From positions 13,220 to 77,219 of the IMG/VR virus record IMGVR_UViG_3300032219_001391: a stretch of DNA of 64,000 nucleotides; one strand, 5' to 3'. The first letter of the stretch is position 1. Every line of letters begins with the position of its first letter. A program made the translations under genes and the position numbers. This document shows, one piece after another, positions 10,465 through 35,627 of this stretch. This DNA is from a virus. Lineage: Duplodnaviria > Caudoviricetes. Below the pieces are notes generated by a model. It was given only the letters and a program-made list of their open reading frames with translations, had not been told where the DNA came from and did no database searches.

Positions 10465-11052
10465 TCAAGTTTGTGTATTGGTTGGTGTAATACTTGGTGT
10501 TGGTGTAATAGTTGGTGTAATAGTTGGTGTAATACTTGGTGTAATAGTTGGTGTAATACTTGGTGTTGGTGTAATAGTTGGTGTAATACTTGGTGTGGGG
10601 GTTTGGGTTCTTCTTGGTGTTAGCGATGGAAAATCAACATTTGATGAACAACAAGAAATATTTAATTTATATTTAGTATTATTTGTTTGAAGTTCACCAC
10701 CAAAAGAATCTAAAACCATACAATAAATTTTTTCTTTGATTGGGAATATTTCGGTACCTCGTTCATCAATATGAGAAATCTGAACTTCAAATGTTTTACT
10801 TTCTTTAGTTTCATTCAAACTAAATTGATAATTTATAAAGTAACTTAATAACCCTTCTTCATTTACTTCACTGGTTATCGTACATTCTTTTTTTATTGTT
10901 TTGTATATTTTCTTTTCAATGTCCCACAAAGACAAATAAAATGTGTCAGAATTACCCAAAGCAGTATTCAACAGATAATCACTACGACCATCATTGATCA
11001 ATTCAAATTTTAACTTTGGTAATGTTGAGTTTTTCTTTATAAAAAAATTCAT
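10465..11052 (-). CDS. virion-type protein with C-terminal Thr/Pro (mucin-like) repeat; paralog of the next gene
   Basis: N-terminus MNFFIKKNSTLPKLKFELINDGR vs MEFFIRKDATLPLLKMQVVNDGR; tail TPTPSITPTITPTPSITPT... Confidence 0.75.
   Translation of the reverse strand: MNFFIKKNSTLPKLKFELINDGRSDYLLNTALGNSDTFYLSLWDIEKKIYKTIKKECTITSEVNEEGLLSYFINYQFSLNETKESKTFEVQISHIDERGTEIFPIKEKIYCMVLDSFGGELQTNNTKYKLNISCCSSNVDFPSLTPRRTQTPTPSITPTITPTPSITPTITPSITPTITPTITPTPSITPTNTQT
10483..10596 (-). repeat. tandem TGGTGT/AATA(G/C)T hexamer array encoding (TP/TI/SI)n
   Basis: Alternating TGGTGT and AATAGT/AATACT units read directly on the + strand. Confidence 0.95.
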
Positions 11053-11061
11053 TAGATATAA

Positions 11062-11421
11062 TTATGAAAAATCAGTTATGTTTATGAAAAGTCGGTCTCT
11101 AATTGGTGTGATCAAGGTACCATTTTCGGTCTGTATAATAAACTCACCTTCAAACCTACCTGCTTTATTTGTATCAACAGGTCTAAATTTGTAGTAAATA
11201 TAATATTCAGGTTTTGCGTTAGGATCCATATTTGTTTTTTCCACAATTCTTGCAGGTAATGTATTGATTTTTATAATACCATTATCCGTGTTTGTCATTG
11301 AAAAATATATGGAAGCGGTTTCTAACGTATTCATAAAATTTTCAAACGTCATTCTTCCATCATTTACCACTTGCATTTTTAGAAGTGGTAATGTTGCGTC
11401 TTTTCTTATAAAAAATTCCAT
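11062..11421 (-). CDS. small BppU-N/Ig-like virion protein (tentative)
   Basis: 119 aa; Y.F...DT.KAG.FEGEF pattern; late motif upstream. Confidence 0.55.
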   Translation of the reverse strand: MEFFIRKDATLPLLKMQVVNDGRMTFENFMNTLETASIYFSMTNTDNGIIKINTLPARIVEKTNMDPNAKPEYYIYYKFRPVDTNKAGRFEGEFIIQTENGTLITPIRDRLFINITDFS

Positions 11422-11440
11422 AATGATAAATATATCATTA
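11419..11440 (-). promoter_or_regulatory. 22-nt palindromic intergenic element containing TATTTAT (copy 2)
   Basis: Reverse complement is TAATGATATATTTATCATTATG, identical to 4613-4634; the inverted repeat extends to 10 bp (11419-11428/11433-11442). Confidence 0.7.
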
Positions 11441-13099
11441 TGATTCTTTTCTTAAGTCTCTTGAATAATGATCAAACCTATCGTGTTCAGTTGGTGTCAT
11501 TAACAATAACGCACCATTTAGATTACCTTTTTTGTGTTCTTGATACATAAAACTCATCCAAGTTTGTTCATATGGATGTGCCCATTTAGTATTCAAAAAC
11601 ATTTTTCTATTACCTTCACGACTTACAACCTGTGGCCAATTTGAGTAATATATCTCACCATCAACATATGGAACACCTTGATATGATCTAATATTGTTGA
11701 ACTTTGTTTTTGGTGCGTTAGGATCGGTTCCGATTTGAGGTAATTTTGGGTATGTTGGCCAGAACTCTTCTCTAATATTTTGTGGGACATTATACCAAGA
11801 CCATTGTGTGCCATTATCTCCAAAAAACTCAGTATAATTTAATTTAAGAAAATCAAAATTTTGATTGTTAATTATACCCATAGATTTGTTGTATAAGTTT
11901 TCAACATATCTATTTAAACCATTTTTACAAACTTCACCTTTTTTTGGATAAAAGAACATATCATCTTCAAAAAACCAATAATAATCTAATCCCGATTCTT
12001 CAAAATGTTCCGCAATCCACTGTCTTCCACCACAAATACCTAAATTATCTTTCTTTATATGTTCAAAACCATAAATTTCACATAGTTTTTTGTATTCATC
12101 AGTAGTTGATAGATCAGTTGAATTATCTAACAGGTACTTTTTAGTATCATCTATAAAGTTTCTATCATACTCTAACATTGAAAATATTAGAGTTTCAAAT
12201 TGTTTTGGACTATTAAATCCTATTACATATAATCCTGTCTTGTCTGTGTCGTGATTATATAAAACTTTCTTAAATGATTTTGTAACAACATTATCATTTT
12301 TAACATCTTCACAAAATTTACTAATCAATCCATTACCTTCTATTTCAAAATAATTATATCTTTCTGAATTACGATACAACAAAATACTAAATATAGATTC
12401 TTCAGTACCCATATAACCACTTCTTAACGTCTCCATCAACATTGAGTAATAGTCTGAATTAAACTGGGTAATCATTTCTTTTGGTCCACCAAATATACCA
12501 CCTCTACCCACATACTTAACATCATCACCGGCATATTTATTCATTGCATTTATTTCAAAACCATGAATTTCAGATGTTGTTTCATAAGGAAAACAAATAA
12601 AACTTACTTTTTTGAAAAGTGTGTCAAATTTATTTTGAATGTTATCGTGAGTGAAATATCCGGAATGAATAGTATTTGTAATACCCGCATCAATCCATAC
12701 TAAATGAGTTGATTCAAATTTATCTAATATCTTAGCATCATGTAATAAAAAAGGTTTTGACATAACCAATGGATTATATAATTCTAATCTAGCTTGAGTA
12801 GACTCCACTAACCATCCTACTTGGTTATACCATTCAGGTTTTTTTCTTATATCTTGGATTAACTCATAATATTCATTACTTCTAAACCAAGAAACATCTC
12901 TTTTAATAAATTGAGTATTAGATATGTCTCTTCGTTCAAAAACAAATTTTTCAATCTCGTCATCACCAAAAATAATCATATTATTTTCAATTTTTAATAA
13001 TTGATCAAACTTGTCTAAATAATGTTGGAATGTCCGTGACCACCCTTCGGTTAATCCATCTCTGTTAATATTCCATAAACCTGTAACTATTGTGATCAT
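11438..13099 (-). CDS. HtrL/YibB-family glycosyltransferase fused to a GT-A domain
   Basis: TIVTGLWNINR...YNPLVMSKPFLL...VWIDAG (HtrL/YibB-like); second domain with FFEDDM. Confidence 0.7.
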   Translation of the reverse strand: MITIVTGLWNINRDGLTEGWSRTFQHYLDKFDQLLKIENNMIIFGDDEIEKFVFERRDISNTQFIKRDVSWFRSNEYYELIQDIRKKPEWYNQVGWLVESTQARLELYNPLVMSKPFLLHDAKILDKFESTHLVWIDAGITNTIHSGYFTHDNIQNKFDTLFKKVSFICFPYETTSEIHGFEINAMNKYAGDDVKYVGRGGIFGGPKEMITQFNSDYYSMLMETLRSGYMGTEESIFSILLYRNSERYNYFEIEGNGLISKFCEDVKNDNVVTKSFKKVLYNHDTDKTGLYVIGFNSPKQFETLIFSMLEYDRNFIDDTKKYLLDNSTDLSTTDEYKKLCEIYGFEHIKKDNLGICGGRQWIAEHFEESGLDYYWFFEDDMFFYPKKGEVCKNGLNRYVENLYNKSMGIINNQNFDFLKLNYTEFFGDNGTQWSWYNVPQNIREEFWPTYPKLPQIGTDPNAPKTKFNNIRSYQGVPYVDGEIYYSNWPQVVSREGNRKMFLNTKWAHPYEQTWMSFMYQEHKKGNLNGALLLMTPTEHDRFDHYSRDLRKES

Positions 13100-13101
13100 A
13101 A

Positions 13102-13731
13102 TTATCTTTTTACCTTACAAACCCAAACAACCTTATCAAAGGTTTCTTTTTTATAACTTATTAAATTATTTTTAATACAAGCGTTCTCAATATCAGAATC
13201 AGATATTTCATACCAATTCCATAATTTCATATAAACATCTCGTTCAAAAGTTTCCCTATCCTGAGAATAATCATGTGCCATAATATAATCACCAGTTTTT
13301 AGATAGTTTGATAATAGATTAAATTCATGTATTTTACTACCCCCATCACAAAGAATTAAAGTAACTCCGTCTTGTTGGATGAAGTCAATAACTTCCTGTT
13401 TAACCTCTGAATAATCGTAATTAAAAACATTCTCAACTCTAACATCAATACCTTCTGAAATCATATCTTTATACCAACTATGTTCGTTAATATCATAAGA
13501 CAAAATATGACAATCAATTGATATTTTTTTACAGGTATAATTCAAAAATGATGTGAAGCCCCCGATTGAGGTACCTATTTCCAATATTCTACTTGGTTTT
13601 ATATCATTCAAAAAATAGTGGAAGGTCTCAAAAACATTTGGGTTTTGTTGAGCACCCCATCCATCATACGTGGATATACTATCATTATGTTCTAAATTTG
13701 ATTTTTTGTAAACTTTATCTTCGTAATTCAT
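13102..13731 (-). CDS. class I SAM-dependent methyltransferase
   Basis: ILEIGTSIGG motif I; ILCDGG and AHDY motifs. Confidence 0.75.
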   Translation of the reverse strand: MNYEDKVYKKSNLEHNDSISTYDGWGAQQNPNVFETFHYFLNDIKPSRILEIGTSIGGFTSFLNYTCKKISIDCHILSYDINEHSWYKDMISEGIDVRVENVFNYDYSEVKQEVIDFIQQDGVTLILCDGGSKIHEFNLLSNYLKTGDYIMAHDYSQDRETFERDVYMKLWNWYEISDSDIENACIKNNLISYKKETFDKVVWVCKVKR

Positions 13732-13732
13732 A

Positions 13733-14596
13733 CTATAATGTTATTATTTTTTTTAATAGATTAAACTCCTTAAAGTATCTTTTTTTAATTTGTTTTAGTC
13801 CTTCTATTTTTTGTTTATAAATTTCATCAGAATTATTGTTTATATGATTTAACAAGTTACTTATCTCTTCAAGATTGTTAATATCATTTATTAAGATATA
13901 TCCGTCTTCAGGATATATATCTTTAATATTTTTACACCCAAAATAAATAGGTATAGTATCTGTTAAAACTGAATCGTAAAATTTTTCAGAAATCCAGTTT
14001 TTTTGATATTCGTTTTCAATTGAGATGTTGAATTTATAATTAACCAACGAGTCGTGTCTTTTTGGACTATTTTTCCAACCACCGTACACATCCACAAAAG
14101 GTAAATGTTCGTTAATCATTTGAGCAATTTGATATCTTTGGGGATAGAGACAATTAGGTCCTTCTAATTTGTTTAAACTTGTAATTGATGATGATATATT
14201 TTTTGTTTTTGTAAAATTATAACTTTTTAAGTTATCATAAGACCAGAAATCTAACGGATCCATCCATGGCCCTCTACCTCCATAAAACGTATGTGATGGG
14301 GTTTCAATACATGGTTTATTATATAAACACTCTTCATAACCAAATATAGTCAAATCTTCATTAAATATTTTTTGATGACTCCCTGAAAATGTAGGTTCGT
14401 GTGGAAAAACAAATAGTCTCGTATTTTCCTTTACAGTTAGATTAACATAATTAAAAAATACAACAACATCATAATCATCATCATAAACAAATTGGATACC
14501 ATCTAAATTAATGTCTTCTGTTTTGAATTGTTTAATTAATCTTTCAGTTATATTTTGTGAATTATCCCATCCAGCTGAAACTCTAATTTTTTTCAT
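13733..14596 (-). CDS. GT10 (alpha-1,3/4-fucosyltransferase-like)
   Basis: YKFNISIEN...WISEKFYDSVLTDTIPIYFG matches the alpha-1,3-FucT motif. Confidence 0.85.
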   Translation of the reverse strand: MKKIRVSAGWDNSQNITERLIKQFKTEDINLDGIQFVYDDDYDVVVFFNYVNLTVKENTRLFVFPHEPTFSGSHQKIFNEDLTIFGYEECLYNKPCIETPSHTFYGGRGPWMDPLDFWSYDNLKSYNFTKTKNISSSITSLNKLEGPNCLYPQRYQIAQMINEHLPFVDVYGGWKNSPKRHDSLVNYKFNISIENEYQKNWISEKFYDSVLTDTIPIYFGCKNIKDIYPEDGYILINDINNLEEISNLLNHINNNSDEIYKQKIEGLKQIKKRYFKEFNLLKKIITL

Positions 14597-15391
14597 TTAT
14601 TCTATCATTACATATTCGTACCTATCCTCATCATCTACCACATAATCTATATAATTATCATTTTGTGCGTTGGGAAAATAGGATGTGATTGGGTATATTA
14701 TTTTATTTGCCCTACTTAAAAATGCCGCCCAAAATGAGAAACTACCTTGACTACATATTATGTTTTTATATTTAGTCAAATCTTTAAACGTGTCTGGTTC
14801 ATTTGTTTTCATTAAAATAGGATTATACGGTTCTAATGCTTTTAATACATCTTCGTGATTAATAATGTTATCGGCATAGATATAAATTTCCGGTACATTC
14901 ATTTTTTCAATTGAGTCAATATAATATTTTGGATATACCTTAAATCTTTTATCTAATGGATCATTTCTTAAATGAATTGCAACTTTATTTTCATCATAAG
15001 ATTCATTCACTGATATGAAATCATTAAAATATGACTTAACCTTTTCTTTATGATTTTTCCAATATGAATATTTTTGATAATACCCACCACTAATAATATT
15101 GTAATTTTTAGTAGATAAAAAATCAATAGCATTGTCTACTGTTTTATGTAATGTTGAAAACCCATCATCAATTCCGTATAGTTCATTTTGTGAAAAATCT
15201 AAGCCCTCTAAATCTTGAAATTTATGTTCTATATTGGGAGTTTGATATTGCGTATTGGGTAAATTATATTCAAAAGATGGACTGACTAAACTATAATTTA
15301 GATTTTCTGCAAGTAATCTACAATAAGAATACATAAATAGTTTATTTCCTAAACCAACAGAATTAAATGGGTAACTATCTATTTTAATCAT
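14597..15391 (-). CDS. GT11 (alpha-1,2-fucosyltransferase-like)
   Basis: GLGNKLFMY, VAIHLR, SFSFWAAFL are GT11 motifs. Confidence 0.85.
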   Translation of the reverse strand: MIKIDSYPFNSVGLGNKLFMYSYCRLLAENLNYSLVSPSFEYNLPNTQYQTPNIEHKFQDLEGLDFSQNELYGIDDGFSTLHKTVDNAIDFLSTKNYNIISGGYYQKYSYWKNHKEKVKSYFNDFISVNESYDENKVAIHLRNDPLDKRFKVYPKYYIDSIEKMNVPEIYIYADNIINHEDVLKALEPYNPILMKTNEPDTFKDLTKYKNIICSQGSFSFWAAFLSRANKIIYPITSYFPNAQNDNYIDYVVDDEDRYEYVMIE

Positions 15392-15394
15392 ATT

Positions 15395-16132
15395 CTATTT
15401 TTTATTACCATTAAATTCAAAACCTAATATGGTAACCGTGTCACCATAAGACATATCAAACATATCATTTAATTCGGCTTTCCTCAAGGAAATACCAATT
15501 TCAAAAGCATCACAATGACTACCGCCTTCCCCATTTTTATTTTGTAAAAAAGTATTCATTTCACACCAGTTATCAGCAAACGTTTTTATCTTATTTGGAA
15601 CATTTTTTAATATTAAAAAATGTTCACTTGGTAATCGTGATTCAAATATATCATCATTTAGGTTGTACTTTAAGATTTCATACGAATCAAATTTATGTGA
15701 GAATGTATTACTCATATTATCTAAATAATAGTTATATTCATTTTTTAATACAGCATCTAATCTAGTCCCAATAACTTCATTATTTTCTAATAACCTCTCA
15801 ATTAAATTTATTGATTCTTGTCTCCATCCTTTTAATTTTATATCCCCATCTAAATAAATTATATAATCATACTTTTCAGGAATATTTTGAAATGATAAAA
15901 ACTTCAAGTTGTAATTAAAACCCGCCGAGTATTTTAGAATTAGTGATGAGTCGTTAATTTCCCGAATTATAACTCTGTTATTTATTTTATTTGAAAAATA
16001 AATAACCTCGTTAGTTGTTAAGATAATATCAAAATCAGTTCGGTTTAAAATTTCATCAATCAAATTAGATGTTGCATCCAAATACATTGGGTTCCCACAA
16101 TTTACCGACAATAATGTAAATACTCCTCTCAT
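15395..16132 (-). CDS. GT-A fold glycosyltransferase
   Basis: YDYIIYLDGD (DxD) and cluster context. Confidence 0.6.
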   Translation of the reverse strand: MRGVFTLLSVNCGNPMYLDATSNLIDEILNRTDFDIILTTNEVIYFSNKINNRVIIREINDSSLILKYSAGFNYNLKFLSFQNIPEKYDYIIYLDGDIKLKGWRQESINLIERLLENNEVIGTRLDAVLKNEYNYYLDNMSNTFSHKFDSYEILKYNLNDDIFESRLPSEHFLILKNVPNKIKTFADNWCEMNTFLQNKNGEGGSHCDAFEIGISLRKAELNDMFDMSYGDTVTILGFEFNGNKK

Positions 16133-17070
16133 GATATAAATTTATTAAATTTTGACATTACAATTTCAGGTGAAAACTGAAGATACGGGGTATAATAATC
16201 ATCATATTTAATATAATTATCAAGATTATTAATGATGTCGTAAACATTTTCTTTTCCTTTATAATAGATCCCTCTTTCTCCCAAAATTTCAATGTGACTT
16301 CTTTCTCCTGATAATTCATAAGTAATAATTGGTTTATTTGACAAAGCAAATTCTGAAATAGCCAAACCAAACGTTTCACCACCACTTCTAGCGTGAATCA
16401 TAGCATCACATGTATTAACAAATGCCGACTTTTTATTTAAGTCATATGAACCTGGTAAAAATTTAATTTGTGGGTGTGAATAAAACTCATCAACATTCAT
16501 AAAAATAAACGTAATATCATTTCTGTTTTCAACAGTTTCAATAATAGCTTCTTTTACAAACTGAATATTAAATTCAGTTGATCCTCCGTAACATCCAAAT
16601 ACTTTAGATGTTAATTTGATGTCCAGTTCTTCTCTTAAATTATAATTAACTTCTGGTAATTTTTCACAAATATATGGTAATGAATGAGTTTCAGGGTCAT
16701 ATCCTTGGTCTTTAGCTAACCAATCAGAGATATAAATATATTTATACCCATGTGGGTTATTAAATCTAAACACAGTATGTACTATTGTTTTTGGTTCATT
16801 AAAAGAATAACCATCATCTAATCCCATTTTAGTAACATAAAGAAAATCAAAATTATTTTCTTTTAGATAAGTTTCATATCCCCACCAATCTATCAATACA
16901 ACTTCAAATCTTTCTTGAAACTTAGGTAACGCGTCCATATTAGCACCAGGAAATGAAAATATAACACTTTTATTACCTAATATTTCTTCATTGTATTTGG
17001 CATAATTAAACATCGCTACTTCAGTTCCTCGTAAGCATAGTTGATTACTATGGAAAGCTATTTTTTTCAT
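16129..17070 (-). CDS. GT-B (GT4-like) glycosyltransferase
   Basis: HARSGGETFGLAISE (E-x7-E-type motif). Confidence 0.75.
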   Translation of the reverse strand: MKKIAFHSNQLCLRGTEVAMFNYAKYNEEILGNKSVIFSFPGANMDALPKFQERFEVVLIDWWGYETYLKENNFDFLYVTKMGLDDGYSFNEPKTIVHTVFRFNNPHGYKYIYISDWLAKDQGYDPETHSLPYICEKLPEVNYNLREELDIKLTSKVFGCYGGSTEFNIQFVKEAIIETVENRNDITFIFMNVDEFYSHPQIKFLPGSYDLNKKSAFVNTCDAMIHARSGGETFGLAISEFALSNKPIITYELSGERSHIEILGERGIYYKGKENVYDIINNLDNYIKYDDYYTPYLQFSPEIVMSKFNKFIS

Positions 17071-18332
17071 AAATTACCTGTTAATCTTTCACACCAACCC
17101 TTAGATGTACTATATGGCCAAACAACCCAATATTTAGGTTTGATAGTTGTTTGGAATTCTCTCCATACCTTACAATATCCATCAGGATCGTTGAAGTATC
17201 CGTTTATTTCGTTTATATCAGAATCTTTTCTAAATATTGTATTGTCGTCCTCGTCATGGAACGCGACAACCCAAAACTCATAGTCTTTTTCAGGTACTTG
17301 TGAATATCCAACATCAATACAATGTTTGAATATACTTGAGAAACTATCTTTCCACTCTTCTTCTGTTTGATAGTTGTACGTATTTGGTGGATATTTTTTA
17401 TCAATCGTTTCTTGTTGGATCGCTCTACGTTCAAACAATAACCCTGAGAATTTTTCGTATTCTCTCAGTGTTCTAACTGACCCAAAACCATATTTTCCAA
17501 AATCTATAACGTCTGTCTCACCATCCATACCAAACAATACTCTGTTTCGTTTGTGTGCTACGTTGTTCTTATCACCCCATTGTTTATCATCATCCCATTG
17601 TTTGGTTCTTCCTTTTCTTGTGTATTCATGCCAAATAATTGGTTTGTGTGGGTGAAATAAGTCGTAACCATGTGTGTAAGCTCTCGCGGCAATTGATATC
17701 TCTTCCCCGTGAAAATAAAATAATGGATCGTGTTGTACTTCCTCAGAAAACTCACCAAGGGTAAAACAAAAATGTGCCGAATAAAATCTTGATGTTACCG
17801 GTCTGTTTAATGATTGCCAATTTGGAATTGTCTCAGGTAAAAAGAAAACCGCACCTTCTGGAATAAAACGATCAAACACCATTCTCCAAGGTTCCTGTAC
17901 TCTTGCGCCAGGATCATTATCAGGATCAAAAGATGGAATATAACCTGTTAAAAGTGGTTTTGGATAACCATCATTTTGTAGATCTTTAACCATCTTAATG
18001 AGTTCTGTATCCCAATGAGGTGTAAATCTATGGTGTGAATCCAATTGTAGTGTGTAACCCTCACCATCATATTGTTGTTGTAATAAATTTCTTGCCCAAC
18101 AAGCACCTTTGGATTCTGTGTAGATTACATCAATAATCTTAAATCTTTTATCCTTACGATATTCATCCAATGTATCAAAACCATCTTCATGGTTATATTG
18201 ACGACAAATTGATAAAACTAAATTTTCGGGTTTGTCAGCATTTTCCAACATTGATTTAATTGTTGGTTCAAGTTGTGGGTCTCTGTATGATGCAATCTGA
18301 ACAAAGATCTTACTATTACGTCTTTTAGCCAT
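17067..18332 (-). CDS. GT60-like polypeptide alpha-GlcNAc transferase (Skp1 Gnt1/OGNT family)
   Basis: IFVQIASYRDPQL, GACWAR, LQLDSHHRF..WD, FHGEEISIAARAYTHGYDLFHP. Confidence 0.85.
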   Translation of the reverse strand: MAKRRNSKIFVQIASYRDPQLEPTIKSMLENADKPENLVLSICRQYNHEDGFDTLDEYRKDKRFKIIDVIYTESKGACWARNLLQQQYDGEGYTLQLDSHHRFTPHWDTELIKMVKDLQNDGYPKPLLTGYIPSFDPDNDPGARVQEPWRMVFDRFIPEGAVFFLPETIPNWQSLNRPVTSRFYSAHFCFTLGEFSEEVQHDPLFYFHGEEISIAARAYTHGYDLFHPHKPIIWHEYTRKGRTKQWDDDKQWGDKNNVAHKRNRVLFGMDGETDVIDFGKYGFGSVRTLREYEKFSGLLFERRAIQQETIDKKYPPNTYNYQTEEEWKDSFSSIFKHCIDVGYSQVPEKDYEFWVVAFHDEDDNTIFRKDSDINEINGYFNDPDGYCKVWREFQTTIKPKYWVVWPYSTSKGWCERLTGNL

Positions 18333-18381: not shown

Positions 18382-19443
18382 TTACCAACCCAATAAAGAG
18401 GATCTTTTCCATTGGTTAGTTCCCACACAAATATAAATAAAATCAGAATCCCAAGTTATGGTTCCTGTTGTTCCAGTATCTCCACTATTTGTTGGGGGAG
18501 TAGATGGTTGAGGTAATAAAAAAGATCCATTTATTGTGGTTGTGGTGTTTATAGTCGTTGCCGTACTTTTAAATACCGCAGAATTACTAAGAGAACCATC
18601 AGCACCATTACCAATGATAAATAAGGTATTAGAATCGGTTATTGGTGAGTTGTATCTACCAACAACAAATTGATTATCACCATCAGAAGTTGTGTGATCA
18701 CCTGACGTAAATGAATTCGTATTATTTGATGTTGTATAATTACCAAGAGCGGTTGAGTTTTGACCGATAGATCTTGCGTAAGTACCTTGAGATAATGAGT
18801 TTGGACCTGTTGATTGTGAGAATGTTCCTAATGCAATGGAAAATCCTCCTGTAGCATATGTTCCAAACCCTAAACTTAAATCCGAAGATCCTACCGAAGT
18901 TGCTGAGTTATTCCTAACCCCATTACTAAAAGTTGTTATACCGGTAACATTTAATGTATTCAAAATTGTATTATTAAATACTGTTACAGCACTTAAGAAT
19001 GATGAAACACCTGTAACTGTTAAAAGATTGATTGTTATACCACTATTAATAAATAAATTATTATAAAAGTTTGTTAAACCATAAAAACTACTATTACCGG
19101 AAATTGTTAAATTATTATAAATTAAGGTATTACCACTAAATTCTGTTTGACCGGTAACCAATAAATTATTTATTGTTGCAGTACTATTTAAGAAATTTGC
19201 AGCATTATCTAGTCTAGTATTACCAGTTACATATAAATTACTATTAATATTAACAGTATTACCGGTTGAATAAATATTAGCAGTATATACATTCCATCCG
19301 GTTGAAACAACTGATTGAGCCATTCCGGATAATGTTATTTTTTTAGTAGTTGGTGTATTTCTAATATCTACTATTGGAAATAGGTCCCCACCACCGGGTT
19401 GATCACCTAATAAAGGTAATTCAGTTATTTTAACATTTGCCAT
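18382..19443 (-). CDS. tail fibre/adhesin-like protein with YadA-head-like repeats
   Basis: N-terminal KITELP; N/T/G-rich beta repeats; A.G..S.A.G repeats; C-terminal GTITWDSDFIYICVGTNQWKR. Confidence 0.7.
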   Translation of the reverse strand: MANVKITELPLLGDQPGGGDLFPIVDIRNTPTTKKITLSGMAQSVVSTGWNVYTANIYSTGNTVNINSNLYVTGNTRLDNAANFLNSTATINNLLVTGQTEFSGNTLIYNNLTISGNSSFYGLTNFYNNLFINSGITINLLTVTGVSSFLSAVTVFNNTILNTLNVTGITTFSNGVRNNSATSVGSSDLSLGFGTYATGGFSIALGTFSQSTGPNSLSQGTYARSIGQNSTALGNYTTSNNTNSFTSGDHTTSDGDNQFVVGRYNSPITDSNTLFIIGNGADGSLSNSAVFKSTATTINTTTTINGSFLLPQPSTPPTNSGDTGTTGTITWDSDFIYICVGTNQWKRSSLLGW

Positions 19444-19444
19444 A

Positions 19445-21427
19445 TCAAATTATTTTTGTATAAATTTCATCACCATTTTCGGTGGTTAATATATCATCAT
19501 CTTCTGTTGATAAATACAGAGTTGTTGGAGTGTAATCACAATTAACACAGAAAAGGTCTAACAACCCAAAATTATTTTTTAATATTCTAAAATTATGTTG
19601 AACTTCAGGAACACTTAATGGTTTTGAATACATTCTAAATTGTGAGATTGCCCCATCAAAACTTCCTGCAAATGATTGTTCAATTAAAATATTTGTGTTT
19701 AACCCACTTAAACTTGTTTGTTGTAAAATGTAATCGGGGAATAATTGTGGATCTTGTTGGTATGTAAAAGTATTTCCTGTTGTCAAAGCACTTAAAACCA
19801 AATTTTCATGTAATCCTTGTGTACCCCCACCCCAAGATATGTTGAATGGGACACCAACCTGTCTTTCTTTTCTTTCATTTAATGGTCTTGGTATTACTTC
19901 TTCAAAGTTATCTATAACAAAAAATTTCTTACCATTAACATAAATTGTTAATTTACCTAATCTATAATATAAATCATCAATCCATTCACGATCTAATGAA
20001 ACTATTTCAATCTGTTCTTCGGGTAAATCATCATGAGTTACTGGTGGTCTAACCAAACTAATTGAGTTACTTGCCATGGATGCGGTGTAAGCCGAGTGAG
20101 TTAGATTACCAATTCCTCCTCGCCAGTATAAATCACAATCATCTAAATACATATTTCTCTCAAATGAGATATCAACTTGAACCCAATGAGGATATTCAAC
20201 CCAAGTTGTTCCGGTACAACTATCATAAATTCTACTAGTAGAACAATATGTCTCAATTGTATATCCACTTGTATAAGTTTGACCCGTATTAAAACAAGAA
20301 CCTGATGTCGTACAATCACCTGTTATTTTCAATACTCTAGCACAAATATTTGGGTTAAGTGGATTACCACTAAACATAACTGCGAGAGCGTTCGACATTG
20401 AATCATCTAAAGGATTATGAATTGGGTCTAAAACAGTTTCACAAGATACTTTCGGTTGTTCAAAATAATTTATTTTATGTATGTTAGTCGTCCCTTGTTT
20501 AGGATAAACTGTAATACAATCTGAATTGGTTATTGCCGTATTTGAACAAGCACAAGTTACTAACTCTTTTGAGGTTTGTGTAACCGGTGTATAACCACTT
20601 GAAGTACCTGTTAGTATGTAATCGGCCGGATGATAGAATTTATCCTCGGCACGAGTACCCATATAAAAGAATATGTTCTTATTGTTTGGGTAATATTCAT
20701 TTAATGTTGTTTCACCAACTGTTGGTAAATAATCATTACTAACTCTGGGTCTTAACAACATTTCTACCGACCATCCTTTATGAAATCTTGTCGGTAATAC
20801 TTCGTAATCATATCCAAATAACTTATAAAAACCTTGGTAAAAAGAACCATATAATTCGTGATACCTTCCGTAAGGGTATTCGTCAAATGAAACCACACCA
20901 TAATCAGTCGCTGCGGTTATACCTGAAAAATACGAACCCAACTCTCTGACATTAGATTTTACTTGGAACATCTTAAATCTTCTATCGTATGAGTATCTAT
21001 CAAACATAGAATTACCGGTTAGTAATCCCATAGTATAACTAATAGAGTTACCTGTCATTCCTGACATCAATCCGTTATCAATACCTGTTAGTCCAATATC
21101 ACAAATAGTTTCACTTAAAAAACACCCACTTTCTAAAAATGAACGAGAATAATTTTCAAGGTTATAGTAATTCTTAGAAATTAAAATGTTATTGTAGGGA
21201 TAAGGTCCGTAATAGGTAATATCTAAAGGTTGTGCCGAACCTGAAAAATCCAAGTTAATGTTAATAGGTAAAACGTTACCGTCATTTGCACCGATAACGT
21301 CAGTAGAAAACACAACTTCTTCATTAAAATCTTTTTCATCAGATGTTAATGAAATGTCTGATATTTCTATAGCAGGTTTAAGATAAACCTTACTAAATAC
21401 ATATTGATTTATATTTTGATATGCCAT
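19445..21427 (-). CDS. large virion structural protein with LamG-like C-terminal region
   Basis: 660 aa; LTIYVNG...FDGAISQFRMYSKPLS..EV..N (LamG-like); late motif upstream. Confidence 0.6.
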   Translation of the reverse strand: MAYQNINQYVFSKVYLKPAIEISDISLTSDEKDFNEEVVFSTDVIGANDGNVLPININLDFSGSAQPLDITYYGPYPYNNILISKNYYNLENYSRSFLESGCFLSETICDIGLTGIDNGLMSGMTGNSISYTMGLLTGNSMFDRYSYDRRFKMFQVKSNVRELGSYFSGITAATDYGVVSFDEYPYGRYHELYGSFYQGFYKLFGYDYEVLPTRFHKGWSVEMLLRPRVSNDYLPTVGETTLNEYYPNNKNIFFYMGTRAEDKFYHPADYILTGTSSGYTPVTQTSKELVTCACSNTAITNSDCITVYPKQGTTNIHKINYFEQPKVSCETVLDPIHNPLDDSMSNALAVMFSGNPLNPNICARVLKITGDCTTSGSCFNTGQTYTSGYTIETYCSTSRIYDSCTGTTWVEYPHWVQVDISFERNMYLDDCDLYWRGGIGNLTHSAYTASMASNSISLVRPPVTHDDLPEEQIEIVSLDREWIDDLYYRLGKLTIYVNGKKFFVIDNFEEVIPRPLNERKERQVGVPFNISWGGGTQGLHENLVLSALTTGNTFTYQQDPQLFPDYILQQTSLSGLNTNILIEQSFAGSFDGAISQFRMYSKPLSVPEVQHNFRILKNNFGLLDLFCVNCDYTPTTLYLSTEDDDILTTENGDEIYTKII

Positions 21428-24099: not shown

Positions 24100-25326
24100 A
24101 TGAGTGAAACAAAAAAAGAAAAAATTAGAGTACTAGTCGTACCATCTGACAGAACAGGTGTAGGTAAATTTAGATCAGTTGATCCACACATTTTTTTACA
24201 AAATCTGTATCCAGATGATTTCCATATTGATATTGAGTTTAATCCTGACTTAAACAACATAGGTCATTTGATGAGTTATCAAATCATTCACATGCACAGA
24301 AGTTTAGGACCTGATTTTGACAGATCAATACAAGCGATAAAAACATTAAATTCATTAGGTGTAATTACAATACTGGATATTGATGATTATTGGTTACCCG
24401 GTAAAGAACACCCTATCCACGATATTATCGTTGCAAATAAGATCAATGAAAAGATTATTGAGAATATTAAAGTAGCTAAGTATGTTACAACAACTACAAC
24501 AATCTTTGCGGATGAAATTAAAAAATACAATAAAAATGTTGTAATTTATCCAAACGCTATTGATCCAAACGAACCACAATTCAAAGAGAAAACACAACCA
24601 TCGGATAAACTACGTATTGGTTGGTTAGGGGGTTCATCTCACTTACACGATTTAATGTTCTTAAATGATTTATTTCCAAAAGTAAGTCCTATTAAAGATA
24701 AAATGCAAGTTTATTTATGTGGGTTTGACACTAGAGGAACTATGACTGAAATTAACCAACAAACAGGTGAACAGAAACAAAGACCTATTAAACCTGAAGA
24801 AACTGTTTGGTTTACCTATGAAAATATTTTCACAAATAACCATAGTCTTATCTCACCTGAATACTCAACCTTCTTAAAGAAATTTAAACAAGAAGATAGA
24901 CCTGAATATTCTGACGAGTTCTATCAAAGAGTTTGGACTAAACCTGTTACATCTTATGCTAAAAACTATTCAAAATTTGATGTATCATTAGCACCAATTA
25001 AAAATCACATCTTCAACAGAGTTAAATCACAACTTAAAGTAATTGAAGCAGGATTTTATAAGAAAGCGTTGATCGCATCAAATATCGGACCTTATACTAT
25101 TGACTTGAAACATTGCTTGGAAAATGGTAACTTTGTAGATGGAAACGCACTTTTGGTGGATGAACAAAGAAACCATAGTGATTGGTTCAAATACGTTAAA
25201 AAATTAGTTGATAATCCTAATATGGCTTTTGATATGGGACAAAGACTATATGAAACAGTAAAAGATACTTACGATTTGAATCAAGTTACCAAAACAAGGG
25301 CAGAATGGTATAAAACTTTAATATAA
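24100..25326 (+). CDS. GT-B (GT4-like) glycosyltransferase
   Basis: ILDIDD, IGWLGGSSH..DL, FDVSLAP...FNRVKSQLKVIEAG. Confidence 0.8.
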   Translation: MSETKKEKIRVLVVPSDRTGVGKFRSVDPHIFLQNLYPDDFHIDIEFNPDLNNIGHLMSYQIIHMHRSLGPDFDRSIQAIKTLNSLGVITILDIDDYWLPGKEHPIHDIIVANKINEKIIENIKVAKYVTTTTTIFADEIKKYNKNVVIYPNAIDPNEPQFKEKTQPSDKLRIGWLGGSSHLHDLMFLNDLFPKVSPIKDKMQVYLCGFDTRGTMTEINQQTGEQKQRPIKPEETVWFTYENIFTNNHSLISPEYSTFLKKFKQEDRPEYSDEFYQRVWTKPVTSYAKNYSKFDVSLAPIKNHIFNRVKSQLKVIEAGFYKKALIASNIGPYTIDLKHCLENGNFVDGNALLVDEQRNHSDWFKYVKKLVDNPNMAFDMGQRLYETVKDTYDLNQVTKTRAEWYKTLI

Positions 25327-26024
25327 TGATAAACACACCTCTAACAAAACTTTTGTTCTTAGACATTGAAACCGTCGGAACCGAAAAGGATTTTTTCCAT
25401 TTCACAAAAAATTACCCAAGAATATCTGAATTTTTTATTAAAAACAGATCTTGGTTAGATAAACGATATCCTGAACATCAGGAATCAACGATTGAAGAAT
25501 TATATCTTAGTGTTTCTGCACTAATCCCTGAATTTGGAAAAATCGTATGTGTTGCGGCAGGATTTGAAGATCCTAACGGGAACTTTGTTACAAAAATAAT
25601 TAGTGGTGAGGAAAAACATATCCTGAAAGAAACTCATTCCTTACTTAATAAAGTACAAGGAATGGGTTTTTGGATATGTGGACACAATGTTAAATCATTT
25701 GATATTCCATATATCATAAAAAGAAGTTTAATGAATGGTATTAAACCATCAACACTATTACCAACACCCGATACTAAACCTTGGGAAGTAAAAGCGGTGG
25801 ATACTAAAGAATTTTGGCAATTGGGTAATTATACCTCACTTTGTTCATTAGATCTAATGTGTGCGTCAATGGATGTTGAATCTTCCAAAGATGGTGAAGT
25901 AACAGGAAACAATTTACACTTTTCGTATTGGAATACTGATAGTCAAGAAAAAATAAACGAGTACTGCGAAAAAGACATCAAGGTACTATACCAAGTAGTA
26001 AAGAAATTTTATGAGCTTAAATAA
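25326..26024 (+). CDS. PolB-like 3'-5' exonuclease (DEDD, RNase H fold)
   Basis: LFLDIETV, GHNVKSFDIPY, EYCEKD. Confidence 0.85.
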   Translation: MINTPLTKLLFLDIETVGTEKDFFHFTKNYPRISEFFIKNRSWLDKRYPEHQESTIEELYLSVSALIPEFGKIVCVAAGFEDPNGNFVTKIISGEEKHILKETHSLLNKVQGMGFWICGHNVKSFDIPYIIKRSLMNGIKPSTLLPTPDTKPWEVKAVDTKEFWQLGNYTSLCSLDLMCASMDVESSKDGEVTGNNLHFSYWNTDSQEKINEYCEKDIKVLYQVVKKFYELK

Positions 26025-26640
26025 TTCTGAAATTTCCATTAAAGAATTGATGGAACTTAGACAACAATTAGAAGATCAATTTGATCTAATCCAAGAAACA
26101 GGAAATGAGGATATCTCAAATAAAATAAAAGAAATGTTTAATATTGATTTGAATGATCTTGATAATGAGATTGATGATTTATTACACAAAGTAAATCTTA
26201 AATTTGAGTTGTTGTGTGATGAAGAAACAAATGAAAAAATTACACCAACATATAACTACCCATCAGATTCGGGGTTTGATTTATATAACGTTGGTCCTCA
26301 TATCATATTACAACCGTTTAGTCGTACATTGATACCGACAGGAATTAAATTAGATATTCCAAAAGGTTTTGAAGTACAGGTAAGATCTAAAAGTGGTTTA
26401 GCTTTGAACCAAGGTTTATTTGTGTTAAATAGTCCTGGAACTGTTGATCAAGGATACACCGGTGAGATTAAAGTTATTTTATATAATTCTACCACAGAAC
26501 CAATTAACGTACCCAATATGATGAAGGTTGGACAAGCGGTTTTATGTCCTGTTGTTTCAGGATCAAAAGTAATGTTAGTTAACAAAAAAGTGGAAGATAA
26601 AGATAGATCAGATAAAGGTTTTGGAAGTACGGGAATATGA
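26011..26640 (+). CDS. dut: trimeric dUTPase with N-terminal helical extension
   Basis: DSGFDL, RSKSGLA, GTVDQGYTGE, GQAV, GFGSTG. Confidence 0.92.
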   Translation: MSLNNSEISIKELMELRQQLEDQFDLIQETGNEDISNKIKEMFNIDLNDLDNEIDDLLHKVNLKFELLCDEETNEKITPTYNYPSDSGFDLYNVGPHIILQPFSRTLIPTGIKLDIPKGFEVQVRSKSGLALNQGLFVLNSPGTVDQGYTGEIKVILYNSTTEPINVPNMMKVGQAVLCPVVSGSKVMLVNKKVEDKDRSDKGFGSTGI

Positions 26641-28250: not shown

Positions 28251-28915
28251 AATTACTTATAAAGTTTCCTACCAGAGGTAGGCCCGAAAAGTTTCTCAAT
28301 ACCTTAAAATTATATTATCAAAATTGTACTGATATTGATAATATAATTTTCTTGATAACAATTGATCAAGATGATCCATCAATGAATAGTCCTGATATAA
28401 TTGATCAATTGAAAACTATGAAAAATCTATATTTCTTTATAGAAAAAAGTACATCTAAAGTTGACGCGGTAAATAGAGACTTAGATAAATTTGATCAAGA
28501 ATGGGATATTGTATTACTAGCATCTGATGATATGATACCACAAACTAAAGGATACGATGTTATAATAAAAAAATTAATGAAAGAACATTTTTCAGATACT
28601 GATGGTGTTCTACATTTTAATGATGGATATCAAAAGGAAACATTAAATACTTTATGTGTATTAGGTAAAAAATATTATAATAGGTTTAATTACATCTATT
28701 ATCCAGGATACAAATCATGTTGGTCAGATAATGAGTTTATGGAGGTTTCACGATTATTAAATAAAACCATTTATTTTGATTTTATAATAATACGTCACGA
28801 ACATCCTGATTGGGGGCATGGTAATCACGACATAATACATACTAAAAATCAAATAGATTATGAATTTGATCAAAATCTGTTTTTAACAAGAAAACAAAAT
28901 AATTTTAATATATGA
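28247..28915 (+). CDS. GT-A glycosyltransferase
   Basis: KFPTRGRP, LLASDDM, WSDNEF. Confidence 0.7.
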   Translation: MKLLIKFPTRGRPEKFLNTLKLYYQNCTDIDNIIFLITIDQDDPSMNSPDIIDQLKTMKNLYFFIEKSTSKVDAVNRDLDKFDQEWDIVLLASDDMIPQTKGYDVIIKKLMKEHFSDTDGVLHFNDGYQKETLNTLCVLGKKYYNRFNYIYYPGYKSCWSDNEFMEVSRLLNKTIYFDFIIIRHEHPDWGHGNHDIIHTKNQIDYEFDQNLFLTRKQNNFNI

Positions 28916-35577: not shown

Positions 35578-35600
35578 TTTACTATTACCTTTAAAAACGG

Positions 35601-35608
35601 TATATTTG
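35601..35608 (+). promoter_or_regulatory. Bacteroidota-type -7 element
   Basis: TATATTTG 19 nt before ATG 35628; no well-spaced -33 element. Confidence 0.45.
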
Positions 35609-35627
35609 TTATATAACACTAATATAA

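Follow-up and report, generated by a model that had tools for sequence, protein, structure and literature searches.

Protist enzymes of glycosyltransferase (GT) family GT60 start mucin-type O-glycans, and the acceptors known for GT60 and GT27 enzymes are Thr, Ser or Hyp within Pro-rich unstructured segments (PMC8724618). Among phages, glycosylation of mycobacteriophage virions is cited in two papers (PMC12363180, PMC12619734), and virions of Xanthomonas phage XacN1 contain at least two Schiff-positive glycoproteins (PMC5852040), so the system described here is not the first phage case. XacN1 resembles the present phage in carrying a GT60 gene paired with a gene for an HtrL/YibB-type fusion (HtrL-GT); the glycoprotein staining was of XacN1 virions. 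In XacN1 and Xoo-sp13, GT60 is followed by three genes and then HtrL-GT, with a convergent gene for a 3313-aa protein bearing a Pro/Thr (PT) tract 3 kb off, and HtrL-GT recurs at 40% identity in XacN1, Xoo-sp13, CM1 and RAS14. In an unrelated lineage (L188/L189), a 320-aa mucin-like repeat protein, (TPTNTP)n, is encoded immediately upstream of GT60, after which come a GT60 paralogue, DUF5672, GT25, an FkbM methyltransferase, GT11 and an epimerase.

The locus compared here belongs to an uncultured freshwater jumbo phage, represented by a 77-kb contig (G000) of only 26% completeness; the window analysed is a 64,000-nucleotide stretch of it. By the ORF listing, positions 10465-18332 form a compact minus-strand operon whose neighbouring genes, GT60 through the 195-aa paralogue, overlap by up to 4 nt or lie up to 16 nt apart (Table 1). 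It encodes GT60, a weak GT-B, a DxD protein, a weak GT11, GT10, a methyltransferase, the HtrL and GT-A fusion and two small paralogues. The enzyme run reported in the initial annotation is real, its ORFs and strand agreeing and its GT-B and GT11 members falling below the Pfam cut-off, and the fibre gene placed before GT60 is indeed fibre-like. A brief S/T/P stretch, PQPSTPPTNSGDTGTTGT, is part of this 353-aa protein, whose place in the close relative L001 is taken by a gene without DNA similarity. The 660-aa protein is probably structural, its C-terminus appearing faintly concanavalin/LamG-like; TATTTAT lies 5 nt 5' of its ATG. Homologues occur at 11 of the 80 related IMG/VR loci that form the comparison set (44-67% identity), and in the near-complete relative G001 the homologue has a peptidase at its C-terminus as well as a PT linker. 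The junction before the 119-aa gene may be a late promoter or start element: its 14-mer, TATTTATCATTATG, recurs at 4621-4634, and the motif is not enriched across the window (15 observed vs 12.3 expected).

Table 1. Positions, within the window, of the minus-strand operon, its flanks and the plus-strand glycan genes.
Feature	Position	Strand	Evidence or remark
Family B DNA polymerase	7574-10399		Next gene downstream of operon
195-aa paralogue	10465..11052	(-)	N-terminal domain common to 119-aa paralogue, CC motif, C-terminal Thr/Pro tail
Thr/Pro tract, 51 residues (145-195 of 195-aa protein)	10468..10620	(-)	TPRRTQTP(TPSI/TPTI)n...TNTQT
119-aa paralogue	11062..11421	(-)	Conserved beta-sandwich domain alone (family alignment)
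Stop-to-start junction	11419..11440	(-)	Holds TATTTATCATTATG
553-aa HtrL/YibB (WlaTC-type) + GT-A-like fusion	11438..13099	(-)	HtrL_YibB PF09612 1.9e-14, 54.3 bits, residues 2-250; operon's last enzyme
209-aa SAM methyltransferase, cassette gene	13102..13731	(-)	FtsJ 9.6e-7, 29.3 bits; RMNT_CmcI 3.3e-6, 27.4 bits
287-aa GT10 fucosyltransferase-like, cassette gene	13733..14596	(-)	PF00852 E 8.2e-16, 58.6 bits; FucT motif FNISIENEYQKNWISEKF
264-aa GT11-like (alpha-1,2-fucosyltransferase-like), cassette gene	14597..15391	(-)	PF01531 19.9 bits (cut-off 23.9)
245-aa probable GT-A (DxD), semi-conserved cassette gene	15395..16132	(-)	DGD at residues 95-97
313-aa probable GT-B (GT4-like), variable cassette gene	16129..17070	(-)	Glycos_transf_1/PF00534 E 1e-4, 22.3 bits (cut-off 26.4)
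GT60-family glycosyltransferase	17067..18332	(-)	PF11397 E 2.5e-72, 244.7 bits (cut-off 21); phrog_24687 1.6e-175
353-aa fibre-like protein	18382..19443	(-)	Directly upstream of GT60; weak YadA-head/BimA repeats, fibre-type C-terminus
660-aa protein	19445..21427	(-)	First gene of minus-strand run; Laminin_G_3, E 0.0096 only
Second glycan gene block, low GC	24100..40075	(+)	GT at 24100-25326, GT2_5+GT4 fusion, GT2, GT2-like, GT61, PRK-like kinase fusion, class II aldolase, FkbM methyltransferase, double nucleotidyltransferase
GDP-mannose 4,6-dehydratase (GMD)	40053..41048	(+)	First step to GDP-L-fucose; PF16363 8.1e-119; TIGR01472 396.9 bits
GDP-L-fucose synthase (Fcl)-like epimerase/reductase	41041..41946	(+)	NF047922 2.5e-72; TGKGLIGS + YAYAK motifs

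The analysis directly gives the genes and their families, the folds, the synteny, the replacement of cassettes, the presence of GDP-fucose genes, and the lack of multi-pass membrane proteins and of TET and C5 DNA-methylase genes among those found. The AF2 model of GT60 (pLDDT 95.2) has polypeptide GalNAc-transferases (ppGalNAc-Ts) as all of its top 29 PDB matches, with Z 19.1-22.3 and rmsd mostly 3.6-4.1 Å over about 263-292 residues, whereas other GT-A enzymes reach Z 17.7 or less; the modelled fold is nearest to that of ppGalNAc-Ts. Among 36 homologues no substitution occurs at D98, H100 or H235 and hardly any at S99, and an extra beta domain occupies about residues 330-421 at the C-terminus. 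We propose that the enzyme is an initiating polypeptide alpha-GlcNAc-transferase. The Skp1/hydroxyproline route considered in the initial annotation is unlikely, since a search for a prolyl hydroxylase found none.

Across the comparison set, GT60 is present at 66/80 loci and HtrL-GT at 76/80, the remainder being mostly truncated, and the small-protein family always follows HtrL-GT. GT60 and HtrL-GT are core genes conserved equally with the polymerase; the median identity is 72% for GT60 vs 70% for the polymerase. Between the two core genes the content changes completely: the 39 distinct cassettes of relatives contain 40 families. All are glycan enzymes: GT34-like, GT25, GT2, GT10 and PLOD-GT-like proteins, methyltransferases, UDP-Galp mutase and a HAD and nucleotidyltransferase fusion. 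In the present cassette, the 313-aa GT-B (phrog_2170 at 2.7e-4; motif GGETFGLAISEF) has no homologue among the 80 loci, GT10 is found at one, the GT11-like gene (phrog_2644 glycosyltransferase 8e-10, residues 14-253) at two, and the methyltransferase at eight. The last, with FtsJ and RMNT_CmcI both above cut-off and a rhamnosyl O-methyltransferase model at 3.5e-6, is a candidate sugar O-methylase. The 245-aa protein (10/80 loci, with a weak homologue in XacN1 ORF331) gave no match in a Pfam scan, and its Atlas neighbours are viral clusters, some of which carry GT8/Mannosyl_trans3 (a lead only). The C-terminal half of HtrL-GT has an FFEDD motif, an Atlas lead to GT2, a weak TAGT match (E 0.007) and a weak match to phrog_842, a beta-glucosyl-HMC-alpha-glucosyltransferase (5e-6 over 60 residues).

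The two small proteins are one family (29% identity), and homologues of the 119-aa member occur at all 80 loci (38-82% identity). The AF2 model of the 195-aa protein (pLDDT 75.6) matches BppU-N, baseplate and minor-tail proteins in BFVD and, by VIA, baseplate chains of phages 80alpha, TP901-1 and NF5. The paralogy and the tail described earlier both stand; the label "virion-type" rests on a weak BppU-N-like fold, at Z 7-8 only, which suggests a location in the virion. The 119-aa protein is probably a virion anchor domain, and the 195-aa protein is a candidate glycan acceptor. The tract of the latter, which at the DNA level consists of 8.7 tandem copies of a 12-nt unit, is the sole one of its kind in the 77-kb contig.

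On the plus strand, GMD and Fcl (40053-41946) appear to give the phage its own GDP-fucose supply, which would feed its fucosyltransferases. The block that precedes them may be tied to the minus-strand operon. The initial annotation left out both the GDP-fucose genes and this second glycan cluster (24100-41946).

The best reading is still the one first offered, in which a GT60 initiator and elongating and capping enzymes stand beside a Thr/Pro-tailed virion-type protein; the ppGalNAc-T-like fold, GMD/Fcl, XacN1 and L188/L189 agree with it. Taken together, a relative of mucin starters, a swappable GT set and a Thr/Pro-tail protein suggest that the phage probably sugar-coats its own particle proteins. 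We put at roughly 0.5 the probability of a phage-encoded cytoplasmic protein O-glycosylation system that modifies late proteins of the phage itself and whose glycan cassette varies. From these data we infer, as follows, which proteins are modified, with which sugars, in what order the enzymes act and to what biological end. Soluble GT60 would place the first HexNAc (alpha-GlcNAc, judging from the family, with host UDP-GlcNAc as donor) on Thr/Ser in Pro/Thr-rich tracts of late proteins; its predicted substrates are TPTPSITPTITPT-type peptides and the 195-aa protein, with either UDP-GlcNAc or UDP-GalNAc as donor. The two-domain HtrL-GT fusion would then add conserved core sugars, and the middle genes, here GT-B, the DxD GT, GT11-like, GT10 and the methyltransferase, would decorate the glycan with fucose from the phage's own GMD/Fcl pathway. 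The likely acceptor would be the C-terminal tail of the BppU-N-like protein at the operon end and, in relatives, Thr/Pro linkers in their fibre proteins and in decoration proteins of the Hoc/SprB-like kind. The Lewis/H-like structure suggested earlier is a guess, as GT11 is below the Pfam cut-off and linkage is unreadable from sequence. As for the Bacteroidota host, there are weak hints only, and the promoter motif typical of that phylum shows no enrichment.

Alternatively, the cluster could remodel glycans of the host envelope during infection, whether on LPS/LOS, capsule or glycoproteins, for example in superinfection block or surface change. HtrL/WlaTC, GT25, GT10 and GT11 enzymes act in bacterial LOS and O-antigen loci, GT25, GT2, GT10 and GT11 are families typically met in LPS synthesis, and "auxiliary" glycan genes are frequent in phages. 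HtrL_YibB proteins are known from LOS/LPS loci alone (PMC4172580), and the JGI label of GT60 homologues is "involved in cell wall biosynthesis". We nevertheless consider this unlikely: GT60 is a protein-directed family with a ppGalNAc-T-like fold, the polymerase-like conservation concerns a GT60 and HtrL-GT core set among fibre and anchor genes, and XacN1 virions are themselves glycosylated. Moreover, flippases, polymerases and polyprenyl-phosphate transferases are multi-pass membrane proteins, and not one ORF of the 77-kb contig carries more than a single predicted membrane (hydrophobic) segment, so it holds nothing resembling these, nor a ligase or Gtr-type protein. This result agrees with a glycan built straight onto an acceptor in the cytoplasm. 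Peripheral GTs could, even so, act on host lipid-linked glycans.

It is also rather improbable that phage proteins are glycosylated while Thr/Pro tracts are mere flexible linkers, the acceptors lying elsewhere (capsid or fibre surfaces, as with chloroviruses and mycobacteriophages) and the adjoining tail being a coincidence of synteny. Such linkers are frequent in phage structural proteins without known sugar, and the tract is missing from P0008 (79% identity) and P0009 (73%), the homologues closest to the 195-aa protein. A tract is present in 33 of 51 distinct paralogue sets (65%) vs about 2% of ORFs genome-wide (7/331 in G001), although this co-occurrence with GT60 mostly reflects common descent in a single clade. 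The other 18 sets are without it, most of these loci retaining GT60 and/or HtrL-GT in the sequence covered, and the seven PT-tract proteins of G001 lie 14-70 kb from GT60. The tail is therefore dispensable as a substrate, and the tract-less sets and distant G001 proteins make it at most one of several acceptors. L200/L201 have HtrL-GT and GT60 as an adjacent pair with no PT ORF found within 10 kb, whereas the repeat protein abutting GT60 in L188/L189 and the Pro-rich acceptors known for GT60/GT27 argue against mere linkers. A PT-tract ORF within 10 kb in 5 of about 7 sampled GT60 lineages does not rise significantly above a PT-rich background (binomial estimate about 0.08 at G001 density).

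Hypermodification of phage DNA with glycans, of the kind carried out by T-even glucosyltransferases, TET-associated GTs and arabinosyl-5hoC systems, is very improbable: it would account for the adjoining PolB (5 kb from the cluster in XacN1), and the weak TAGT and phrog_842 matches speak for it, but GT60 is protein-directed, neither Tet_JBP nor a C5 DNA methylase was found in G000 (26% complete) or four relatives, one 97%-complete, the sole ThyA homologue, in G001, has canonical dUMP-type PFNIAS/PPCH motifs, and we know of no fucosylated, methylated multi-sugar chains on DNA, even if phage GTs can place mono- to trisaccharides on 5hmC (bioRxiv 10.1101/2023.12.21.572611).

If the phage does glycosylate its own particle proteins, the swapping of the middle cassette among otherwise similar phages would leave related phages with different virion glycans.

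GT60, the putative initiator of the glycosylation operon, matches PF11397 with 244.7 bits against a cut-off of 21. Members of this family are the protist polypeptide alpha-GlcNAc-transferases, the starters of mucin-type O-glycans (PMC8724618). The AlphaFold (AF2) model of the phage enzyme (pLDDT 95.2) has a GT-A fold related to GT27, with a DxH metal-binding motif and a distal histidine. D98, H100, and H235 do not vary, and S99 hardly does, across 36 aligned homologues with identities as low as 36%. Polypeptide GalNAc-transferases (ppGalNAc-Ts) make up almost all of the best Foldseek matches in the PDB, and with VIA-align 29 of their PDB entries rank first (Z 19.1–22.3; rmsd mostly 3.6–4.1 Å over about 263–292 residues), with other GT-A enzymes following from Z 17.7 downward. 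By sequence, a phmmer search of GT60 and HtrL-GT (the HtrL/YibB and GT-A-like fusion) against PDB entries gave no match. The catalytic domain of the GT27 ppGalNAc-Ts, the mucin-type initiators of animals and apicomplexans, is the best structural match and shares the DSH motif, but the phage enzyme is only 13–17% identical to them, has no ricin-type lectin domain by sequence, belongs to another family, and probably uses UDP-GlcNAc as donor.

With the GT60 enzymes of protists (Dictyostelium and Trypanosoma cruzi, including Gnt1 acting on Skp1 hydroxyproline), the phage enzyme shares the strong PF11397 match, the GT-A fold with its DxH...H metal site, solubility, a Thr/Pro-rich candidate acceptor, and elongating glycosyltransferases, fucosyltransferases among them, encoded alongside (PMC8724618). 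It differs in being encoded by a bacteriophage and predicted to act in the bacterial cytoplasm, in carrying an additional C-terminal beta domain (about residues 330–421) outside the Pfam model, and in its pairing with an HtrL-GT fusion, unknown in protists. No hydrophobic segment was found in it. The initial annotation had cited hydroxyproline as a known acceptor of GT60 enzymes. A Skp1-type (Gnt1) route through it is rejected as unlikely because its partner is missing: no prolyl 4-hydroxylase was found by a PF13640 search of the viral contig that contains the window and of four relatives, one of them 97% complete. A literature search on PTVT repeats of Dictyostelium PsA as possible GT60 substrates gave nothing usable, and this parallel carries no weight here. 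The Thr/Pro-type peptide TPTPSITPTITPT is a possible synthetic acceptor. In metagenomes the family comprises at least 7,388 clusters at 90% identity and at least 4,516 at 50%; it was not found in 14 model prokaryote genomes. Public metagenomes also hold giant proteins of 1,600–2,500 aa in which as many as four GT60-like stretches stand in tandem (P0248–P0250, P0256, P0260). Literature searches on GT60 in phages yielded no more than a CAZy listing, from a preprint on a sponge virome, and those on jumbo phages and fucose nothing useful.

The 77-kb contig is 26% complete by CheckV, so the genome is probably that of a jumbo phage of ~290 kb. From 21427 down to 10465, the minus-strand genes are spaced by −4 to +49 nt. 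The gene content and order first described for the operon hold, while the labels GT-B, GT-A, and GT11, and the term "virion-type" for the small paralogues, are its weak points. Megablast of the region against isolated phages gave no match, and the closest cultured relatives of the family B DNA polymerase (PolB), from Salinibacter and Nostoc phages, are only ~24% identical. The listed TTG start of PolB adds 13 residues before MIDQNE, and the ATG at about 10360 is probably the real start.

Features of the window; numbers give the order of transcription in the operon
Order	Feature	Position	Strand	Match or remark
1	660-aa protein	19445-21427	-	faint LamG-like end
2	353-aa protein		-	fibre-like
3	GT60	17067-18332	-	PF11397, E 2.5e-72
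4	probable GT-B		-	Pfam score below cut-off
5	245-aa DxD protein		-	no Pfam match
6	GT11-like protein		-	below Pfam cut-off; phrog_2644 at 8e-10
7	GT10		-	8.2e-16
8	methyltransferase		-	FtsJ / CmcI rhamnosyl-O-MT
9	553-aa HtrL_YibB + GT-A-like fusion (HtrL-GT)	11438-13099	-
10	small paralogue, 119 aa	11062-11421	-
11	small paralogue, 195 aa	10465-11052	-
	family B DNA polymerase (PolB)	7574-10399	-	next gene after 195-aa paralogue
	GDP-mannose 4,6-dehydratase (GMD)	40053-41048		TIGR01472 396.9 bits, just below equivalog cut-off 415
	GDP-L-fucose synthase-like (Fcl)	41041-41946		NF047922 243.9 bits; TGKGLIGS + YAYAK motifs
	major head protein	55146-56993
	portal protein	61063-62895

An identical 14-mer, TATTTATCATTATG, occurs at 4621–4634 (+) and 11419–11432 (−), forming the stop-to-start junction at two unrelated genes, a SOD-like gene (4632) and that of the 119-aa paralogue. 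The pattern TATTTAT-N2-12-ATG shows no overall enrichment in the window (15 observed, 12.3 expected), and a version with fixed spacing gave no match. TATTTAT is present at six real gene starts, including those of the 119-aa gene and of the 660-aa gene (21427) and those at 1723, 46151, and 50157.

The enzymes encoded after GT60 are assigned with unequal confidence. GT10 scores 58.6 bits on the Pfam C-terminal domain (cut-off 23.9) and contains FNISIENEYQKNWISEKF, which we take to be the alpha-1,3-fucosyltransferase consensus motif. The GT11-like protein reaches 19.9 bits, under its cut-off of 23.9, with residues 201–242 alone aligned; phrog_2644, annotated "glycosyltransferase", covers residues 14–253. 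The GT-B candidate also stays under the cut-off for Glycos_transf_1 (22.3 bits, cut-off 26.4), and its GGETFGLAISEF motif is present. HtrL-GT matches PF09612 with 54.3 bits (cut-off 24.1). On the NCBIfam YibB equivalog it scores 66 of the required 265 bits and is therefore a member of the HtrL_YibB/WlaTC family, not a YibB orthologue.

Donor supply for fucosylation appears to be encoded by the phage itself. GMD and Fcl, which constitute the de novo pathway to GDP-L-fucose, are both present with intact cofactor motifs, and this fits with the two fucosyltransferase-like genes of the operon. They end a second glycan gene block, of low GC (24100–41946), that holds at least five further glycosyltransferase genes. 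Within it, the stretch 28000–40000 (ORFs 28247–40075, +) has ~25% GC compared with ~31% elsewhere and encodes GT2, a GT2-like gene, GT61, a class II aldolase/epimerase, an FkbM methyltransferase, a 523-aa protein of two nucleotidyltransferase halves, a 480-aa fusion whose C-terminal half resembles phosphoribulokinase/uridine kinase, and several ORFs without a family. This stretch may be a pathway to an unusual activated sugar.

Comparison with related phages separates a conserved frame from an exchanged cassette, the genes between GT60 and HtrL-GT. The small-paralogue family is present at 557 IMG/VR loci, of which 80 were fetched. In 76 of the 80, the gene immediately before that of the small protein is HtrL-GT; GT60 is found in 66 and PolB in 62, with most absences falling at contig ends. 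Median identities among relatives are 72% for GT60 and 62% for HtrL-GT, values like that of PolB (70%), so both are core genes. The stretch between them ranges from 0 to 7.6 kb, and the cassettes of the window and of 39 distinct relatives contain 40 protein families. In the relatives' cassettes scanned these are glycan enzymes: GT34-like, GT25, GT2, another GT10, methyltransferases, a PLOD-GT-like protein, UDP-galactopyranose mutase, and a HAD and nucleotidyltransferase fusion. None of the other cassettes sampled contains the window's GT-B or its GT10. A close relative, L001, is 90.5% identical in DNA from HtrL-GT through PolB (PolB protein 99%); its GT60 is 76% identical, and its cassette and fibre gene are without similarity. 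Between the two phages, the cassette has been cleanly replaced.

Bacterial O-antigen/LOS outer-core and flagellin-glycosylation islands are built alike, with conserved flanks around mosaic, exchangeable genes for glycosyltransferases, methyltransferases, and sugar-nucleotide synthesis. Acinetobacter OC loci also hold HtrL, GT25, and Glf (PMC4172580). Unlike these islands, the phage locus has no lipid-carrier, flippase, or ligase genes and sits among virion genes in a lytic-type jumbo-phage genome.

Candidate acceptors are found at the end of the operon. The 195-aa paralogue has a 51-residue C-terminal Thr/Pro (PT) tract, coded by a 12-nt tandem repeat and the sole such tract in the 77-kb contig; its closest homologues have no tail. 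The small-paralogue family, large in metagenomes, combines an N-terminal domain of ~120 residues, usually with a CC motif, with a variable C-terminal part of zero to more than 1,200 residues that very often opens with a Thr/Pro linker. The N-domain is modelled as a beta sandwich (pLDDT 75.6). Its BFVD matches, at TM 0.4–0.6 and E 1e-4 to 1e-3, include BppU-N, baseplate, and minor-tail proteins, and VIA gives Z 8.0 for the 80alpha baseplate, 7.7 for the TP901-1 baseplate, and 7.0 for the TP901-1 ORF48 N-domain, in the tool's grey zone. NF5 baseplate and Sf14 neck chains are also among the best PDB matches (Z 7–8, likewise grey zone), and no BppU match was found in the small paralogues with Pfam or PHROG. 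From the modelled fold, we infer that the N-domain could be a virion anchor displaying a variable C-terminal module.

Among relatives, 33 of the 51 distinct adjacent paralogue sets have a PT tract and 18 lack one, with GT60 and/or HtrL-GT still visible, within the sequence covered, in most loci of the latter kind. For comparison, a PT tract is carried by 7 of 331 ORFs in a near-complete related genome, G001, and by 0 of 323 in bacterial control loci; the PT proteins of G001 are encoded far from GT60. Two of those scanned (L098:3858-6620 and L098:11740-12720) match SprB repeats and Hoc-like head-decoration proteins. SprB repeats are characteristic of Bacteroidota gliding adhesins, and the matches hint at host phylum and surface display. 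Another is a 958-aa homologue of the window's 660-aa protein (L094:885-3761; G001 38885-41761); besides a PT linker it contains, at the C-terminus, a papain-like peptidase (phrog_16701, 2.3e-53) that is missing from the window copy. In many members of the small-paralogue family, two acidic C-terminal motifs recur after PT tracts, of the types NPILIGNDEYLxVGNNEYLxF (P0012, P0013, P0017, P0047) and LLQEDGxxLLQEDGSKIII (P0060, P0065, P0071); they might be docking motifs. LLQEDG-like strings also occur in the 660-aa protein and in ORF325 of Xanthomonas phage XacN1 (L081/L082).

The GT60 and HtrL-GT pair extends to other phage lineages. Xanthomonas phages XacN1 and Xoo-sp13 and Stenotrophomonas phages CM1 and RAS14 encode both in the window's order (GT60 47–50%, HtrL-GT 40% identical; ORF334 and ORF330 in XacN1). 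Other genes also sit between the two in this group, but in XacN1 they comprise a carbamoyltransferase together with two ORFs, the small BppU-N-like paralogue is missing, and the host is gammaproteobacterial. XacN1 and Xoo-sp13 have a convergent ~3,300-aa protein with a PT tract after their baseplate wedge genes. XacN1 virions contain at least two glycoproteins detected by Schiff staining, for which phage glycosyltransferases were proposed as the cause (PMC5852040); HtrL-GT was not recognised as a glycosyltransferase in that account. In two further loci (L200:8395-11248, L201:7526-10376), from another viral lineage, HtrL-GT (44–45%) lies immediately upstream of GT60 (59%), reversed relative to the window and with no cassette between. 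The L188/L189 lineage has neither HtrL-GT nor PolB synteny. There, a 320-aa protein consisting mostly of (TPTNTP/TPTATP)n is encoded immediately upstream of GT60, which is followed by a GT60 paralogue, DUF5672, GT25, an FkbM methyltransferase, a clear GT11 (E 2.5e-31 in L189), and an NDP-sugar epimerase. Overall, a PT ORF lies within 10 kb of GT60 in 5 of ~7 lineages sampled (binomial estimate 0.01–0.08, depending on background). This link is only suggestive, and most of the co-occurrence of GT60 and PT tracts is shared descent.

The reading given the most weight here, at roughly even odds (about 0.5), is that the phage encodes a cytoplasmic O-glycosylation of its own late proteins, made up of GT60 acting on Thr/Pro tracts, HtrL-GT, and a strain-variable cassette. 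GT60 would initiate on the tracts, the conserved HtrL-GT step would follow, and the cassette would complete the glycan, in the window phage by adding fucose and methyl groups. A phage-protein acceptor, Thr/Pro tracts in particular, is favored by the protein-directed family and fold of GT60, by the membrane check of the 77-kb contig, in which zero ORFs have two or more membrane segments, and by the frequency of PT tracts in the paralogue sets; the sets without a tract, the tail-less closest homologues, and the distance of the PT proteins from GT60 in G001 count against it. A Lewis/H-like structure and glycan mimicry are speculation. Alternatively, the cluster may remodel envelope glycans of the host, as HtrL, GT25, GT10, and GT11 are LPS-type families and lipid-linked intermediates of the host are open to peripheral glycosyltransferases; against this speak the lack of membrane machinery, the status of GT60 and HtrL-GT as core genes, and the staining of XacN1 virions. 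Glycosylation of phage DNA is unlikely because searches of the contig and four relatives found no Tet_JBP or C5-methyltransferase, and the single ThyA homologue, from G001, has the dUMP-type motifs of a canonical thymidylate synthase, even though the cluster adjoins a polymerase and modification genes could lie outside a contig that covers 26% of the genome.

A Bacteroidota host is plausible, though unproven. SprB repeats occur in relatives, and the nearest GMD matches include Saprospiraceae and Chitinophagales. The nearest cellular matches of GMD (70–77%) come from MAGs of both Acidobacteriota and Bacteroidota, and some of these contigs may be misbinned phage, so GMD affinity is an ambiguous guide to the host. 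GMDs 72–76% identical occur on L114 (JAAFIM010000001.1, 242,744 bp; Chitinophagales MAG) and L108 (251,339 bp; Acidobacteriota MAG), which may be misbinned phage genomes, given sizes near those of jumbo-phage relatives (242,064 bp in the related phage genome G003). The Bacteroidota promoter TTTG-N17-21-TAnnTTTG is not enriched in the window (4 matches, 5.1 expected) and so says nothing on the host. In PMC12619734, aquatic "moraphages" with core glycosyltransferases are predicted to infect Bacteroidota.

Apart from the hint in XacN1, a few mycobacteriophages are, to our knowledge, the only phages for which virion glycosylation by phage-encoded enzymes has been demonstrated. Chlorovirus PBCV-1 encodes its own GMD and GDP-fucose synthase, soluble multi-domain glycosyltransferases, and a sugar methyltransferase, and it assembles its glycans in the cytoplasm without relying on the secretory glycosylation of the host; they are N-linked to the major capsid protein. 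The two systems are alike in encoding GMD/GDP-fucose synthase, glycosyltransferases, and a methyltransferase (the chlorovirus machinery is also cited in PMC5852040); the chlorovirus differs in its N-linked glycans, its eukaryotic host, and the absence of a GT60 initiator. In mycobacteriophages Che8, Corndog, and Myrna, as described by Freeman et al. 2023 (cited in PMC12363180 and PMC12619734), phage glycosyltransferases, with Che8 gp110 and Corndog gp38 among them, glycosylate the phages' own virion proteins, and the glycans sit on capsid and tail-tube subunits, at their C-termini. By that description, these sites are comparable to the C-terminal tail here, while the host phylum differs and the present phage adds a GT60 initiator, genes for making GDP-fucose itself, and a hypervariable cassette. 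The proposed system is a variant of the virion glycosylation known from mycobacteriophages and chloroviruses, not a new category. What is new is the architecture of fixed frame and variable cassette, the GDP-fucose pathway encoded by the phage, and the connection with XacN1 and its glycosylated virions.

A more tentative extension, to which we give distinctly less credence, is that the operon is a "glyco-serotype" locus. The fixed frame of GT60 and HtrL-GT would place a core O-glycan on Thr/Pro tracts of virion appendages, and the cassette would set the outer glycan of the strain; that of the window phage would comprise two fucosyltransferases, two other glycosyltransferases, and a methylase, fed by its own GDP-fucose. 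Selection could stem from glycan-binding receptors or defences of the host, from grazers, or from adhesion to polysaccharide matrices. Such a locus would do for virions what O-antigen diversity does for bacteria and, from the number of GT60 clusters in metagenomes, would be widespread.

The proposed glycosylation is directly testable, because cultivable Xanthomonas and Stenotrophomonas phages carry the module. If it is real, a mucin-type logic otherwise known from eukaryotes, with a GT60 initiator acting on Thr/Pro repeats, would be in use among freshwater jumbo phages, in an abundant clade of them, and in several lineages unrelated to it; these phages would supply their own GDP-fucose and diversify the glycan through cassette exchange. 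Thousands of "auxiliary" phage glycosyltransferases and the uncharacterised HtrL/WlaTC family would gain a function, and soluble enzymes of the bacterial cytoplasm would become available for producing mucin-type glycopeptides. It would also alter the view of how phage surfaces deal with hosts, polysaccharide matrices, and predators.
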